From positions 1-64,000 of the forward strand of contig JBCCQY010000034.1 of NCBI GenBank assembly GCA_039208735.1: DNA of 64,000 bases, read 5' to 3'. Below, in pieces: positions 5,754-62,826 of this stretch. The notes under the pieces were generated by a model. It had not been told where the DNA came from and ran no database searches. It saw only the letters and a list, made by a program, of their open reading frames with translations. The DNA comes from Myxococcota bacterium. GTDB taxonomy: Bacteria; Myxococcota_A; UBA796; GCA-2862545. How positions within the stretch are numbered: position 1 is the first letter of the stretch; each line of letters starts with the position of its first letter. The translations under genes were made by a program, and so were the position numbers.

Positions 5754-7130
5754 CTAAGCGCTCGACGTCTTGGGGTTCCACGAGCGAGGTCTGGGACGTA
5801 CGGCTTCGTTGTCGGCGGCTTGCTTCGGAACCGCGCTCGGCAGGTGTACGGAAAACGTCGAACCTTCTCCGAGGGTCGATTTGACTTCCATCCGCCCGCC
5901 CATGAGGCGAGTCAGTTCACGACACAGGGTGAGGCCCAGCCCCGTGCCACCGTAGACGCGGGTAGTGGACTTGTCGGCTTGCTCGAAGGCCTCGAAGACC
6001 CTCTGCAAGTCGTCTTCGTGCATCCCGATACCGTCGTCCTGAACGACGATGACCACTTCCTGGGCCCTGAGGTCCGCTGACAGTCTCACGACGCCACGCT
6101 CGGTAAACTTGATGGCATTGCCAGCAAGATTGACCAACACCTGTTTGAGACGTTCGGGATCACCCGGAAGAAAACGAGCCTTCGGATCGATGTACACATC
6201 GAGCGAGTTGTGGCGCCTCAAGGCTAATCCTTCGAGCAATGCGCAGACCTCGTCGAACAACGGAACGAGGTCGAGCCTTTCGATACGCAGATCGAGCTTA
6301 CCGGCCTCGATTTTCGAGAGATCGAGAACGTCGTTGACCAACGCAAGAAGGTGGGAGCCCGCCAGCTGAATGCGCTCGATGTCGAGTCGAATCGGCTCGT
6401 CGGACTCAAGGTCCTCTTGCAGCAATTGCGCGTAGCCGATGATGGCATTGAGAGGTGTTCGCAACTCATGCGACATATTAGCAAGAAAGGCACTTTTCGC
6501 GTTGTCAGCCTCGAGTCGGGCATCGCGTTCCTTTACCACCAGCTGGACCAGCTCGGAGAGCATGTCAATGGTCGCCTTTGACATTTGTGCAGCTGCAAAC
6601 AGCATCGTGGCGATAACGGCAAACGCGGACACGCTCATCGAAAGGTAGGTCGTCTGCGTCAACGCACCCAAGTCGATGGGCTCGATGGGACTTCCAAGGG
6701 TCACCAGAAAGTACAGCAGCCCAGGGACGACCAATCCGCTCCAGAAGAACCACCGTTCTGACGGACGAACCAGGAGCAACACCATCGGAGGAAAGATGAA
6801 GGCAATGGTATGAAAGCCAGATGGAACACCGAGGAGGAAGCCAAGCGCGACGTACCCAAACAGGTTGACGGTGAACAGGAGGACCCTGGCGAGGGTGCGG
6901 TAGCCAACGTGGCTCGCCGCGATGGTTAGGCCCCAACCCGCGATGAGTCCGACAATGATCGCGACGGGCCGTGCGTCGACGAAGGACAGAATGACCGCCT
7001 GAGGGGTGGCGGCGCAGATCTCGGTGAGGGCGATGAGTTTGGCCGTCTGGCTACGCCGCTCCACATCAAGGGCCTCCATATCGGGCAGATGCGGGGCGTC
7101 GTCAAGACTCGCCTGTCGCAGTGGCTGCAT
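5754..7130 (-). CDS. Membrane sensor histidine kinase
   Basis: TM N-terminus; FLANMSHELRTPL H-box; NLAGNAIKFT, DDGIG, GGTGLGL boxes. Confidence 0.93.
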   Translation of the reverse strand: MQPLRQASLDDAPHLPDMEALDVERRSQTAKLIALTEICAATPQAVILSFVDARPVAIIVGLIAGWGLTIAASHVGYRTLARVLLFTVNLFGYVALGFLLGVPSGFHTIAFIFPPMVLLLVRPSERWFFWSGLVVPGLLYFLVTLGSPIEPIDLGALTQTTYLSMSVSAFAVIATMLFAAAQMSKATIDMLSELVQLVVKERDARLEADNAKSAFLANMSHELRTPLNAIIGYAQLLQEDLESDEPIRLDIERIQLAGSHLLALVNDVLDLSKIEAGKLDLRIERLDLVPLFDEVCALLEGLALRRHNSLDVYIDPKARFLPGDPERLKQVLVNLAGNAIKFTERGVVRLSADLRAQEVVIVVQDDGIGMHEDDLQRVFEAFEQADKSTTRVYGGTGLGLTLCRELTRLMGGRMEVKSTLGEGSTFSVHLPSAVPKQAADNEAVRPRPRSWNPKTSSA

Positions 7131-7145
7131 GAATGGTCTCCACGA

Positions 7146-8231
7146 TCAGGCGTTTGGACGAGTCAGACGACTCGAAAGCTCGAGAAGGCGCTCCGCGGTG
7201 GTCGCCGACATTCGGCCCATGCCGCACGAGCACGCCACATCTACGGCGTGACCACGGTGCTGCTCTACGATCGAAAGCAAGGTGTCGTGGTCATCATCGT
7301 CGAGTTCGGGGTGCACAAAGCCCGCAACGAGCCGTACTCCCTCGGGCATCGCGAGCTTGGCGAGCGGCTTGTAAAAGTCCGGATCCAGCGGCGGTGGTGT
7401 GGCGGCTTCAGCCAGCGGAATGTGGAGGTAGCGAAGTTCGTAGGTATCGGGCCATCTTGCGAGAAGGGCATTGGCAAAGCTCACCGCCTTGCGGATGCTG
7501 CCAGCCTTGATGAGGGCCTCGTTGTTCAGATCGCCAAAGCACAAATGGACGCCAAAGGGTACCGCTGGCCGCACTTGACGCAACAGGCGCACCACCCCGC
7601 CCGCAGGAAATCCATGAAGCAAATCGGGCAGCTGATAGGCCAAGGCAAGATTGCCTGGGACCTCGAGCTGAAAGGCGATGTCGCCCTCGTCCGCTTCGTC
7701 AAGGATCGCATTGGCCTCAAATGCCATGCGTCGGTCGAAGGTCGGAGCGTACCGAAGCGCATTCACCGGTGACATCATCGCGAAGGTCATGCCGATTCCC
7801 GTGGGAAGCCCCACTTGGAGTTTTAGATTCGGCAGGTTGTGAGCTTCCCGTAGCCGTTTGAACACCGGGTAGTTCTTACGGAATGCGTCTAGCCAACCAA
7901 AGTCAAGGTGCTCGAAAAGCGCCGAAGGAGCATGTCGCGGAGCAAGGCGGGGCCCTTTGTCATAGCCCGTGGGGAAGCCACTTTCGCCACGTTCCCCCTC
8001 ACGAATTACGCGAAATGCGGCCTCGTCTCTCATGCAACGGTCGATGATGACCTGGACCCAGGCGGCTCGCTCTCCGAGCGGGTACGCCTCGGAGTGTTCC
8101 CCGATCTCTCCGTCGGGAAGAGCCATCACGAGGCGGTCTCCGACCACCTCCAGAGCCTTCGTCATGGCCGTTTCTTCGTTCTCGAACGGCAGACTGCCGA
8201 CCAGCAGCACCCGGCGATGTTTCTCGTTCAC
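7146..8231 (-). CDS. Methionine synthase (cobalamin-independent) C-terminal-like TIM-barrel protein, function unknown
   Basis: LLVGSLP...LPDGE, QVGLPT, FGVHLCFGDL, AGFVH, VACSCGMGR motifs. Confidence 0.65.
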   Translation of the reverse strand: MNEKHRRVLLVGSLPFENEETAMTKALEVVGDRLVMALPDGEIGEHSEAYPLGERAAWVQVIIDRCMRDEAAFRVIREGERGESGFPTGYDKGPRLAPRHAPSALFEHLDFGWLDAFRKNYPVFKRLREAHNLPNLKLQVGLPTGIGMTFAMMSPVNALRYAPTFDRRMAFEANAILDEADEGDIAFQLEVPGNLALAYQLPDLLHGFPAGGVVRLLRQVRPAVPFGVHLCFGDLNNEALIKAGSIRKAVSFANALLARWPDTYELRYLHIPLAEAATPPPLDPDFYKPLAKLAMPEGVRLVAGFVHPELDDDDHDTLLSIVEQHRGHAVDVACSCGMGRMSATTAERLLELSSRLTRPNA

Positions 8232-58643: not shown

Positions 58644-59471
58644 ATGCCCGACTCCCTGTTCACCGTGCATCGTAGTGCCGTCTCAGATCCCGGCTCCTCG
58701 GGCGCTCCACAGGTGTGGTTGCTGCACGGGGTCTTCACCGACCACCGACTGTGGGATCCGGTGTTGCCCGCCCTACATGGGCTCGACGTCGTGCGACTCG
58801 ATGCCCCAGGTCACGGCGAAGCCGCCCTTGACCGTGAGATGCCTTCGTTGATGGACCAGGTCGACGATCTGGCCGAGCTAATTCGTGCCCGTGCGCGCCA
58901 CCCGGTCGTCTTGGCCGGCCATTCCTGGGGAGGCATGCTCGGCCTGCGACTTGCTGCCGCCAAGCCGGATGTTCTCGCTGGACTCGTGCTGACAAACACG
59001 CCGCTGCGGCGCAATTCGGGAACCAGCCGGCTCGGCTTCAGGGCCCAGCAGCTTCTGCTGTGGGCTGGGTTTCCGCTCGGCTCGTACGGGCGAATCGCGG
59101 CCCGGTCGATGTATGGCCATGAATACCAACGAACTCATCCCGAGGTCCTCGACACGACTGCGTCGACCCTGAAGCGTCTCGGGCGCCGTGGAGCGCGGTC
59201 CACCCTACAGCGGGTGCTCCTCGAGCCCGAGGATGCCATCGACCTTCTCGCCGGGCTTAAGGTTCCCGTGACCTTGCACGCGGGGGTCGACGACTACGCG
59301 GGCAACGATCAGGTGCGTGCGTTGGCGTCGACGGCCGGCCACCCGATTCACCATCATGAAGGCGGGCACATGGGGCCCGCCGAAGCCCCTCTGCACCTTG
59401 CGGAGGCCATTCGCGGCATGGTGCAGGCCCTCAACCCTGAAGGGTCAAGGCTGAGCGTCCTTGAACAATGA
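58644..59471 (+). CDS. Alpha/beta-fold hydrolase
   Basis: LLHG, DAPGHG, GHSWGG nucleophile elbow, GVDD, GGHM; GGAGG RBS. Confidence 0.9.
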
Positions 59472-60026
59472 ACGGAATTCGCCATACCCCTTCGCTTCTA
59501 GCTCCTCGACAGGGATGAAGCGCAAGGACGCCGAATTGATGCAGTAGCGAAGACCGGTCGGCGCGGGGCCATCGTTGAACACATGGCCCAGGTGACTGTC
59601 CCCGTGCTTCGACCGGACTTCGGTCCGCACCATGAAGTGCGTCGTGTCGCGCTTCTCAACGACATGCCGGCGCACCAACGGCTTGTAGAAGCTCGGCCAA
59701 CCCGTCCCGCTCTTGAATTTGTGCGTCGACGAGAAGAGCGGCTCACCGCTCACGATGTCAACGTAGATTCCGGGTCGCTTGTTGTTCCAAAACTCGTTTG
59801 AGAACGGACGTTCGGTTCCGTCCTGCTGCGTCACCCGGTACTGCAGTTCGGTAAGGCGCTTTCGGATCTCCGCATCCGATGGCTTGGGGTAGGTTTTTGA
59901 CGCGTCGACCTTGACTTCGTCAGCCACCGGAGGTCCCGCGATGGCACCGTCGTACCAACGGCTCCCAATCGCAATCGCGATCAGCACGATTGCGACGGCC
60001 AAGCCCTGTCCGACCAAGTTCCTCAT
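59445..60026 (-). CDS. msrB: Peptide-methionine (R)-S-oxide reductase with N-terminal signal/anchor
   Basis: [44 protein letters not shown]; no CxxC zinc motifs. Confidence 0.96.
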
Positions 60027-60122: not shown

Positions 60123-60932
60123 TCAGTCCGTAATTCGGTGATCGATACGCCAGACCTTGTCGCACGGTCGGCAAAGCGAGGTGGGCAATCCGGAGTTGCG
60201 CCGCGTGCGTCCCGAGACGGCCTTGAACACCGGGCCGCTGTTGTCCTCGTCACACTGGATACAAGCGTTCGGAGCACCATCTTCGTCATGGTACGGGGCA
60301 TTCAGCAGGCTGATACACGTCTCGAGACAGACTTGGCCCGTGTGGGCCGTGTTGTAGGCCCAGATCTCGGCGCACCGATCGGTAAAGCCGAGCTCCTTCA
60401 GGCACGGAACCGAGTCCAGCGGATCTCCGCCGAAGCTTTCGAGGCCACACTGACGCACGGGGGTTGTCAGGTCCTGCTGCTCGATGTAGACAGCCAAATC
60501 CTCGAGCGAAGAGCACATTCCACAGGGTCCGCCGTGCGTGACCCTTGCCCCTTCCTCCCAAGCCGCCTCCTGACTCGCGAAGGATTCCAGGCGATAGGTC
60601 AGTTCGTCTGCGTCGAGCACAGTCAACCCACAGACGCCCCCTTCATCCAGGGACCACTTCGCAGGCTCGGTGTAGGGATCCACCGTCAGGGCATTCGCAG
60701 GATTGTCCAACGTCCATGCACGCAACGCGGCGAGGTCGTCAGGGGTGTAGTCGGGCACCGCCCAAGTGGCGTCACCCGCCGTCACCTCCGACTTGCAGGC
60801 ATCGGTGGTGAGTCCAGTATTTTTGCCGGGCATCCCGAACAGGTGGTCACACGTGGCGTCGGTCCACGGAGTGACATCTCCTTGGTCGATGGGGACGGCA
60901 CAGGACACGAAGACGAGGAGAAGACAGCGCAT
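60123..60932 (-). CDS. Cys-rich hypothetical lipoprotein
   Basis: FVSC lipobox; THGGPCGMCSS...CIQCDEDNSGPVFKAVSGRTRRNSGL. Confidence 0.8.
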   Translation of the reverse strand: MRCLLLVFVSCAVPIDQGDVTPWTDATCDHLFGMPGKNTGLTTDACKSEVTAGDATWAVPDYTPDDLAALRAWTLDNPANALTVDPYTEPAKWSLDEGGVCGLTVLDADELTYRLESFASQEAAWEEGARVTHGGPCGMCSSLEDLAVYIEQQDLTTPVRQCGLESFGGDPLDSVPCLKELGFTDRCAEIWAYNTAHTGQVCLETCISLLNAPYHDEDGAPNACIQCDEDNSGPVFKAVSGRTRRNSGLPTSLCRPCDKVWRIDHRITD

Positions 60933-61027: not shown

Positions 61028-61537
61028 ATGATTTGGTTGGTGCTGTTCGCGTGCGATTCACCATTGACGGAGTTGGCAACCACGTCTTCCCCGAGTACTC
61101 CTCCGAAGACGTCGACCGAACCCGAAACGAACGCTCCGAAGGACTCGTCGGACCCCGCCCCCACCGGGATGACCGGAACCCCGATGACCAACACAAAACC
61201 GCCCTGCGACCTCGACGATGTGGAGCGGGCGCCGGGACCGGGTTGGTCCGATAGCTATTCGGTTGACGGACGCTGCTACTGCGACACGACATACGACCAC
61301 GACATCGGTGACGTGATGGTCGACACGCCGGTGGGGCCCCGCACGGTTCGCCAGATCTGTGAGGCGATTGGACCTGGGCCAGGGGCCGATGGCAATCCTG
61401 TGTACAACGATGTGCAGTGCGGGAATGGGCCTCCCAACAACGCAGGCGACGAGGACTGGTGCCCGGGTCGGGTGGACCAAGGCAAGGATGGGTGTTGCAC
61501 GACTGGACCGACCTGGGACCTAAGCCTGGTGCAATAG
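61028..61537 (+). CDS. Cys-rich hypothetical lipoprotein with Pro/Thr linker
   Basis: GAGG RBS; MIWLVLFAC; WSDSYSVDGRCYCD...YNDVQCGNGP...CPGRVD. Confidence 0.8.
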   Translation: MIWLVLFACDSPLTELATTSSPSTPPKTSTEPETNAPKDSSDPAPTGMTGTPMTNTKPPCDLDDVERAPGPGWSDSYSVDGRCYCDTTYDHDIGDVMVDTPVGPRTVRQICEAIGPGPGADGNPVYNDVQCGNGPPNNAGDEDWCPGRVDQGKDGCCTTGPTWDLSLVQ

Positions 61538-61610
61538 GGCTTTTTCAGGCGTCAGGCCGGCAGCCGCAACGGTTCGCGCGGCTGACGCATCCCTGGACTA
61601 CAATCCGAAT

Positions 61611-61865
61611 ATGAAACCCGCCCATTTGCCTACGTTGTTGCTTGTGGCCAGCTCAGCCGTGGGTTGCCCTGGCCCCATCATCGCTCCAATGGCGCCTCCG
61701 GTCGACACGAGCGAGATTGCCCCAATGCCACCTCCCGATACAAACGACACGAGCGAAGCGCCCATGCCGCCTCCGGATACCAGTGACACCGGCCAGGCTC
61801 GGGCCGTTCCTGCGTCGCTGTCGCCCCCACCTTCGAGGCCCCCGCTTGTCCGACGCACCGTCTGA
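61611..61865 (+). CDS. Small lipoprotein-type peptide with three APM(A/P)PP-DT repeats
   Basis: MKPAHLPTLLLVASSAVGC signal/lipobox; repeats differ mainly at synonymous codon positions. Confidence 0.72.
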   Translation: MKPAHLPTLLLVASSAVGCPGPIIAPMAPPVDTSEIAPMPPPDTNDTSEAPMPPPDTSDTGQARAVPASLSPPPSRPPLVRRTV

Positions 61866-62826
61866 CGACACCCAGCTCGACCCTCATTGGGCGACGTGGA
61901 TTGCCGAGAACCTGCTTCGCGGAGCGCCGCCTCGCGATTTATGGGCGGTGCTGGAATCCGAAGGAGTGCCCCCGGATCGCGCCCGAGCCGAGGTCAACGC
62001 CCTGGACGGCTCTGCCGCACTGGAGGCGGCCCGGCGGGTCATGGGCCGATCGGCGGGCGTCGAGCAGGCGGCCCGCTTGGTCCGCGCCCATGCGCAAGCC
62101 GGTTGGGAGGTCGACTCACTCGACGACACCACCTTCGAGCTGGGCTACCGTTCGGCTCATCGGCCGGTCGTCTTTCGCCAGGGCGCTCGGAATTGGCCGG
62201 CGCTCGAATGGACGCATCGGGGGCTCGCTGAACGAGTGGGGGAGGTCGAAGTCGAGGTGTTGCGGGGTCGTTCCGATCATGCCCAATGGTGGCTCAAGCG
62301 GGAGACGCTGCGCACGCGGATTCGCTTTGCCGAGCTTCTTGAGCAGTGCCTCGAAACCACGGGAGACGATCTCTACGCCGTCGGCCGCAACGACCTGCTT
62401 GACGAGCCCGGATTGGCGGTCCTCAAGGACGAAATCGGCCGCCTGCCAGGTTGCAAGACCGATCCCGGGGCCCGCCTGTGGATTGGGCCGGCGGGGACCC
62501 GAACCCCGCTTCACCACGATCAGAACAGCGCATGGCTGGTCCAGGTCGAAGGCCAAAAACAGATTTGGATCGCGAGCCCGCTCGAGCCGACCCTGCTGGA
62601 CTCGGCGCAGGGCGTGTTCAATCGCTTCAAGCCGGATTCCGCTCCGCCAAACGACCCGGTGCACTGGCGAACAACGACGCTTGAACCAGGAGATGCGGTG
62701 TTCTTACCAGTGGGTTGGTGGCATCAGGTGGTGGCCATCCGTCCATCCATCTCGGTTTCGCTCGGTCACCTGAACGGGGACGTCCCCGCGACGTGGTACC
62801 ACCCCGGCCGTCGCATGCCCGGCTAG
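61846..62826 (+). CDS. JmjC/Cupin_8 2OG-Fe(II) oxygenase with N-terminal helical extension
   Basis: GAGG then TTG 61846; RPVVF...WPA, LWIGPAGTRTPLHHD, QVEGQK, LEPGDAVFLPVGWWHQV. Confidence 0.9.
   Translation: MSDAPSDDTQLDPHWATWIAENLLRGAPPRDLWAVLESEGVPPDRARAEVNALDGSAALEAARRVMGRSAGVEQAARLVRAHAQAGWEVDSLDDTTFELGYRSAHRPVVFRQGARNWPALEWTHRGLAERVGEVEVEVLRGRSDHAQWWLKRETLRTRIRFAELLEQCLETTGDDLYAVGRNDLLDEPGLAVLKDEIGRLPGCKTDPGARLWIGPAGTRTPLHHDQNSAWLVQVEGQKQIWIASPLEPTLLDSAQGVFNRFKPDSAPPNDPVHWRTTTLEPGDAVFLPVGWWHQVVAIRPSISVSLGHLNGDVPATWYHPGRRMPG

Follow-up and report, generated by a model that had tools for sequence, protein, structure and literature searches.

The overlapping gene pair

The window analysed here, a stretch of 64,000 nucleotides, is the start of a contig (C34) in a 9.4-Mb assembly with 64% GC, whose best-named protein matches are mostly from Myxococcota, which suggests a myxobacterium-like source. 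Close to its end, two overlapping genes encode a predicted lipoprotein precursor (P0002) and a JmjC oxygenase (P0001) (Table 1). An earlier note, drawn from the letters of the sequence, had described an 84-aa ORF with an AVG-C lipobox and three APMxPP repeats, wobble variation in the repeat codons, a 20-nt overlap with a TTG-started JmjC gene, the hiding of the peptide by an extended JmjC frame, an intact HxD...H triad, and an extra N-terminal WIAENLLRG helical domain on the enzyme. Our analysis bears out these observations, with the AVG-C site better called lipobox-like.

Table 1. Features of the gene pair (positions in the window).
Feature	Positions	Strand	Support or remark
Predicted lipoprotein precursor, 84 aa (P0002)	61611..61865	+	ATG start; homologs upstream of JmjC relatives
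Predicted signal peptide; its n-region contains Pro (MKPAHLP), and a lipobox-like AVG-C19 ends it	61611..61667	+	Sequence
Core 1, APMAPP	61683..61700	+	Sequence
Core 2, APMPPP	61719..61736	+	Sequence
Core 3, APMPPP	61758..61775	+	Sequence
C-terminal SLSPPP, a candidate follower; tails in the close clade have the GL[ST]PLP form of this motif	61815..61832	+	
GAGG, likely RBS of the JmjC gene, within the peptide ORF	61835..61838	+	
JMJD5-like JmjC (Cupin_8) oxygenase, 326 aa (P0001), signal peptide not evident	61846..62826	+	
N-terminal three-helix domain (WIAENLLRG) and long linker helix, residues 13-82	61882..62091	+	No Pfam family
Metal ligands H223-x-D225	62512..62520	+	71/71 relatives
K238, aligned to 2-oxoglutarate-binding K336 of JMJD5	62557..62559	+	71/71 relatives
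V257 in the betaIV-betaV insert; class of residue differs between enzymes with Met-core and Gln-core partners	62614..62616	+	
H293, third metal ligand	62722..62724	+	70/71 relatives, remaining one truncated

The TTG start of the JmjC gene lies 20 nt inside the end of the peptide ORF and 7 nt downstream of the GAGG; the protein of a relative 80% identical to the JmjC of the window begins MSDVPSDD. With 403 open codons, the JmjC frame runs across the peptide ORF, so ORF finders stretch the oxygenase over the peptide and mask it.

The repeat ORF of P0002 is not a product of chance. Its core codons differ at wobble positions (GCT CCA ATG, GCC CCA ATG and GCG CCC ATG), and TRF reports a 39-nt repeat at 61703-61780. 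A six-frame scan of the genome for triplets of P[MQ]xP inside 60 residues gave nine places, and only one of them, the peptide of the window, reads as APMxPP repeats. Contigs of an independent study, one run of which (X1) may itself be the source of the window, span the overlap junction, where the differences listed comprise only an in-frame 3-nt insertion. Five of the six differences listed inside the peptide fall at third codon positions, and a loose end in these contigs carries the repeat onward in frame. One might still see here a chance low-complexity ORF or a frameshifted single-gene fusion, given that the JmjC frame has no stop along the peptide and that third-position GC in the peptide ORF is only 0.68. 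This reading is refuted by conservation, as dozens of genomes have two separate ORFs arranged in this way and the independent contigs keep the junction in frame; we leave it practically no chance.

The putative export signal is less canonical, with an off-consensus Ala at position -3 of the lipobox. All 27 short partner peptides examined from related enzymes have a Cys behind a hydrophobic stretch, and 24 of them match a relaxed lipobox pattern of our own. In close relatives, L[TS]PxP is found at the position of the P0002 signal-peptide region. No NCBIfam family was found for P0001 or P0002 and no sigma-70 promoter for the gene pair; an Atlas search with the peptide reached a best score of 0.85, which is a lead only.

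The neighbourhood holds other genes of similar appearance. A 169-aa Cys-rich lipoprotein-like ORF (MIWLVLFAC..., 61028-61537, forward strand) ends 73 nt before the peptide and has no match in Pfam or NCBIfam; pieces of relatives were present in all four sequencing runs compared. Divergent from it is a 269-aa Cys-rich lipoprotein-like ORF (60123-60932, reverse strand), also without a Pfam or NCBIfam family. A gene at 59445-60026 on the reverse strand, 1.6 kb from the pair, encodes an MsrB (SelR domain) whose N-terminus is extended by a hydrophobic, signal-like segment. Between the 169-aa gene and the peptide, a GC-rich hairpin at 61549-61590 is weak (z -2.1 over 61535-61612) and lacks a U-tail.

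Conservation and diversity of the pairing

The neighbourhoods of JmjC homologs with the WIAENLLRG domain were surveyed in two sets. The first comprised 38 distinct loci, after removal of duplicates and of one locus starting at a contig edge. The second was held out and drew on 47 further loci, the best-scoring part of the matches, of which 33 were kept (we removed 11 duplicates, 2 loci where no N-domain was called and 1 locus of an unpublished genome). In the resulting 71 hand-classified loci, partners with P-[M/Q/T]-x-x-P cores lie directly upstream of the enzyme in 55. Their cores are of Met type in 31 loci, of Gln type in 13 and of Thr/Cys type in 11 (5 long Sec-type proteins and 6 short lipopeptides); the remaining loci have other signal-bearing peptides (5) or no clear partner (11). 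Counting only upstream ORFs with at least two copies of [APST]P[MQ]x[PY], we found partners at 23 of the 38 loci of the first set and at none of 17 JmjC loci lacking the N-domain. The expectation of the earlier note, that such enzymes would have proline-core peptides upstream, thus stands for most of the family and fails for the 11 enzymes without a partner. Junctions are most often 4-nt (G/A)TGA overlaps, spacers diverge (2-24% acidic), and the general core motif fits all types except a short Thr-type variant (L151, PPTACH). The gene pair is a real, conserved two-gene module across the phylum.

Polyproline runs stall ribosomes, in ways that depend on EF-P or on secretion, as in SecM and MifM. 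The small ORF, with its PPP runs, its signal sequence and a downstream RBS inside it, might therefore be a regulatory leader in which stalling tunes translation of the overlapping oxygenase. We find this very unlikely: partners carry up to 13 core copies, those of Thr/Cys type have no PPP runs, and at some loci the partner ends 70-270 nt before the enzyme.

Beyond the pair, little is shared. Flanking genes, compared by ORF starts only over at most 4 kb at nine loci, differ, no shared protease or transporter was seen among the flanking genes of relatives, and the oxygenase is the sole conserved enzyme seen at these loci. Three neighbours in the window, namely msrB, lysR and the 169-aa gene upstream, were unmatched in the other loci tested, most of which offer no more than 1.5 kb of flank. 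This matters for the idea that the repeats serve at the membrane as Cu(I) ligands or oxidant scavengers, the oxygenase belonging to the same stress response and leaving them untouched. The Met-rich repeats and the msrB gene nearby on the opposite strand are what one would expect of such a system, yet Gln replaces Met in 13 loci and these three neighbours did not recur in the loci tested, so its chance is slimmer still than that of a leader.

The distribution of the JmjC family is patchy. Relatives were found in 24 of 49 family genomes (E 1e-40), in 32 of 401 genomes of the phylum (E 1e-20; not all of these relatives have the N-domain) and in 46 of 351 genomes of another class, a tally that includes the unpublished genome. 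A scan of genome contigs returned no relatives with a single-protein query and nine with an alignment query; a metagenome scan returned one, with nearly no upstream DNA. On the enzyme tree, loci with the same type of partner group together (16 changes, compared with 36.8 on average after shuffling), which is expected from kinship.

The Thr/Cys-type partners are of two kinds. At five loci (L008, L011, L012, L013, L023), the upstream genes encode Sec-type proteins of 244-281 aa that end in APTCG[PA]CCHG and have no Pfam match; they pair with one monophyletic JmjC clade (HFDPHN) and are candidate C-terminally modified proteins. At six others (L144, L146, L147, L151, L157, L166), short lipopeptides, most with repeated PTAGPCAH[DN]PxxPxC-type cores, pair with a JmjC clade of HHDGD type; their Cys/His cores might bind metal. 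Variant Y[VI]GT[QP]P cores occur in the upstream ORFs of L007 and L034, the latter mixing in PPMPPP, and the partner at L039 has its N-terminal part in other frames, probably through sequencing error.

Peptides without an oxygenase, which the earlier note had named as an observation that would count against the pairing, did not turn up: no stand-alone leader-plus-core peptide was found in the 49 family genomes. A leader-plus-core profile gave 13 matches below E 1e-6 in these genomes, of which 11 were training peptides beside JmjC genes and two were new and ran to contig ends. Among 17 weaker loci, two were linked to JmjC genes and none of the others had a real multi-core ORF. DNA patterns for PPMPP were noisy, with matches, many of them without a JmjC, in 47 of 61 and 110 of 401 genomes; JmjC was present at 6 of 50 such loci inspected, and most of the others were antisense frames or linkers. 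The 50 loci included a different lipoprotein with PPGAPM linkers (L096/L097) and a core-type peptide at a contig end (L102) in a genome whose JmjC gene starts another contig. A separate candidate, L193, proved to be an antisense frame.

The converse, enzymes without an adjacent peptide, does occur. In the close clade of the window they number 7 of 16, five of them in one subclade. Three of these enzymes have a partnered paralog elsewhere in their genome (G424, G427, G429), and one has only about 120 nt of upstream sequence. A homolog with the N-domain on a Ralstonia plasmid follows an unrelated 90-aa ORF, and one on a Sinorhizobium plasmid also has other neighbours; the enzyme family is therefore not confined to the proline-core partner. 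The Sinorhizobium meliloti locus (L120, 4866-10845, plasmid NZ_CP066360.1) has the JmjC homolog convergent with a RiPP-like cluster of a B12-radical SAM protein, a flavoprotein, a 2OG oxygenase and an unannotated 72-aa Cys-ending ORF (7047-7265, reverse strand).

The oxygenase and its N-terminal domain

P0001 scores 80 bits against Pfam Cupin_8 (cut-off 27.4), and its best match by sequence and by fold is JMJD5 (Foldseek E about 1e-15). A word search with 8000 scored candidates gave 684 relatives, with a tight group at 44-80% identity. The AlphaFold2 model (pLDDT 89) places helices at residues 13-82, followed by the JmjC core. The metal ligands H223, D225 and H293 and the Lys K238 are invariant in 32 close homologs, and none of the 71 relatives lacks Y177, T220, H223, D225 or K238. 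Together with W212, these residues (H223/D225/H293/K238/Y177/T220/W212) align to H321/D323/H400/K336/Y272/S318/W310 of JMJD5, in a numbering taken from the alignment and calibrated on H321/D323 as given in the available text of PMC5862942. In fold and in the aligned HxD...H, Lys, Tyr, Ser/Thr and Trp residues, P0001 thus resembles the JMJD5/FIH subgroup as described in that text (PMC5862942). It differs in its extra N-terminal helical domain, in the replacement of E238 by Leu and in the lack of conservation at N327, and in being a bacterial enzyme coupled to a dedicated small gene.

Some matches carry the label of the ribosomal oxygenase YcfD/RoxA, which hydroxylates Arg81 of L16. The Arg-binding E238 of JMJD5 aligns to L139, a position that is neutral in 67 of 71 relatives and Glu in only three. 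The RIOX enzymes carry a winged helix, according to the available text of PMC5862942, whereas the model of P0001 ends in a short coil after a strand at 301-306, with the C-terminal winged helix absent. The L16-Arg81 label is disfavoured because of these two differences, and we rejected it.

A 70-position profile of the N-domain matched 684 representatives. Of 145 new matches examined, 97 carry a JmjC core and most others look like N-terminal fragments. Among 16 N-domain proteins picked for Pfam, one has two copies before a prolyl-4-hydroxylase-like domain, and another fuses a JmjC core, a second copy of the N-domain and a prolyl-4-hydroxylase-like domain; an Atlas structure search also indicates a prolyl-4-hydroxylase-like context, but below its naming bar. 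The domain was observed in a JmjC/prolyl-4-hydroxylase-like fusion (P0199), in tandem before 2OG-FeII_Oxy_3 (P0208) and on a KAP NTPase (P0204). Modelled in isolation it is a three-helix bundle. A fold search found nothing above background, the best hit being the primase RepB' (Z 6.4, rmsd 3.0, 62 aligned), and a word search gave four matches, none of them new. We also considered a RiPP recognition element of the PqqD type, with three beta-strands and three helices; the domain is all-helical in both models, and its scores do not rise above background, with Z 5.0 for PqqD (rmsd 2.5, 52 aligned) and Z 4.8 for lasso B1 (rmsd 2.7, 53 aligned). From its occurrence on two hydroxylase classes we infer a substrate-reading role, and it is plausible that it recognises the precursor peptide.

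These contexts bear on whether the lipopeptide is the substrate at all. The JmjC could hydroxylate another cellular protein, such as the proline-rich tails of envelope proteins, with the lipopeptide as a co-expressed partner or one of many substrates. The 11 of 71 enzymes without an adjacent partner, five of which form one subclade, and the other contexts of the N-domain are in its favour. Partner type nevertheless tracks the enzyme clade, junctions are tight, and the L16-Arg81 target named by some labels misfits an enzyme that has E238 replaced and a model without the winged helix. We regard this explanation as unlikely.

One of 318 columns, residue 257, splits the enzymes with Met-core partners (aliphatic in 18/18) from those with Gln-core partners (aromatic in 7/7). 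In the held-out loci the residue is aliphatic in 13/13 Met-core enzymes and aromatic in 5/6 Gln-core enzymes, a single locus (L161) breaking the rule; a covariation rule at residue 139 failed there. Residues 257 and 258 may be the counterparts of R238 and Q239 of FIH. Neither R238 nor Q239 occurs in the available text of PMC5862942, which does describe the betaIV-betaV insert as binding the substrate in JMJD5, FIH and YcfD. The pattern at residue 257 amounts to 1-2 independent pairs and is not significant, and a single Met-core clade is not rejected (p-AU 0.29); we therefore treat it as a hypothesis and not as evidence of coevolution.

A putative lipopeptide hydroxylation module

Our results suggest, with a probability of roughly two in three, that the pair is a minimal module in which the JmjC hydroxylates each core of the precursor before export and lipidation at Cys19. 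The overlap of the genes would couple their translation, and the N-domain would bind the precursor through its n-region or its tail. P0001 has no evident signal peptide, and any contact between enzyme and precursor must therefore precede export; such an order of events was shown for MNIO DAG-RiPPs in the available text of PMC13056109. The cytoplasmic JmjC would then hydroxylate each P-M-x-P-P core once (+16 Da), presumably, as the analogy to JMJD5 and FIH suggests, at the C3 (beta) carbon. The modified precursor would then leave through Sec and be lipidated at Cys19 without further proteolysis, giving a membrane-anchored, multiply modified proline-rich peptide. Its role is likely to be structural or at the surface, as a stiffened, possibly further decorated polyproline rod.

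The modification might instead fall on the Pro-rich n-region or the C-terminal tail and control export or turnover, the repeats being an unmodified spacer. A PxxP[AL]V-like n-region recurs in Met, Gln and Thr partners (14/32 with one pattern), and the close clade has GL[ST]PLP tails. Since the n-region motif is degenerate, the same pattern misses the peptide of the window, and the cores are much better conserved, we hold this to be quite unlikely.

If the core is the substrate, the invariant Pro (at -1 or +3), which alone recurs in Met, Gln and Thr cores alike, has slightly less than an even chance of being the target. The central Met or Gln is possible at somewhat lower odds; the exchange of Met for Gln, the neutral pocket and residue 257 would point to it. 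Any other residue is an unlikely target. Hydroxylation of Asp or Asn, also proposed by the earlier note, is improbable because the spacers are unconserved whereas P-[M/Q]-x-P is conserved. No JmjC prolyl or methionyl hydroxylase was found in the available texts of PMC4543633 and PMC5862942. Only tentatively, at odds well short of even, do we extend the proposal to a phylum-wide JmjC family with a three-helix reader, which would write the first JmjC-type prolyl or methionyl/glutaminyl hydroxylations on multi-core lipoproteins and on C-terminally tagged secreted proteins.

The closest known systems are the DAG-RiPPs (DybA-DybH, NedA-NedBC), which, in the available text of PMC13056109, share with our pair a precursor with a lipoprotein signal (predicted in our case), repeated cores (NedA), an adjacent cytoplasmic non-heme iron enzyme and short clusters. 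Large proteins bearing a C-terminal motif are further substrates of their enzyme family, and the JmjC family spans a similar range of lipopeptide and tagged-protein partners (PMC13056109, available text). The enzymes there are MNIOs, whereas the enzyme here is a predicted mononuclear Fe/2-oxoglutarate JmjC, and the cores of the window are rich in Pro, Met and Gln and free of Cys, unlike the Cys-containing cores of the MNIO families. An MNIO-dependent DAG-RiPP of the chryseobasin, bufferin or oxazolin types was therefore rejected: the enzyme is a JmjC and not an MNIO (DUF692), and the cores lack Cys. The words 'JmjC', 'cupin' and 'proline' do not occur in the available main text of PMC13056109. 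Judging from sequence, the gene pair would work like a DAG-RiPP outside the MNIO families.

JmjC enzymes do act on RiPP precursors elsewhere. According to the available texts, CzlI converts Phe to Tyr and its gene lies directly beside that of the precursor (PMC11575548), and BipG is an ornithine hydroxylase acting on a RiPP precursor (PMC12707348). Both perform tailoring steps in multi-enzyme clusters that yield released compounds, as far as these texts go (PMC11575548, PMC12707348), whereas at our loci no conserved enzyme was seen besides the oxygenase, and we predict a product that stays lipid-anchored. Bacterial JmjC homologs in RiPP-like contexts are noted in PMC12710340, whose available text does not include this pair. 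We found no description of a lipopeptide-JmjC module in the mostly freely accessible literature searched, and the module is apparently undescribed so far.

Plant extensins and other hydroxyproline-rich glycoproteins combine a signal peptide with X-Pro-Pro-Pro repeats, and prolyl 4-hydroxylases act on them in the secretory pathway. By analogy, the precursor of the window has a predicted signal peptide and proline repeats as candidate sites, with a JmjC in place of the prolyl 4-hydroxylase. If the tentative extension to a phylum-wide family is correct, myxobacteria would possess an extensin-like hydroxylated, possibly glycosylated, envelope polymer, and at least three core chemistries (PPMPP, PPQPP and PTxGPCxH) would be matched to enzyme clades. 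A hydroxylated Pro, Met or Gln would be an addition to what the available texts of PMC4543633 and PMC5862942 report of JmjC reactions. The two-gene, multi-core format also suits the engineering of site-specific hydroxylation tags. A large family of bacterial 'cupin-like domain-containing proteins' gains a concrete candidate substrate, and the logic of lipoprotein RiPPs, demonstrated to date for MNIOs only, would extend to Fe/2-oxoglutarate JmjC oxygenases.
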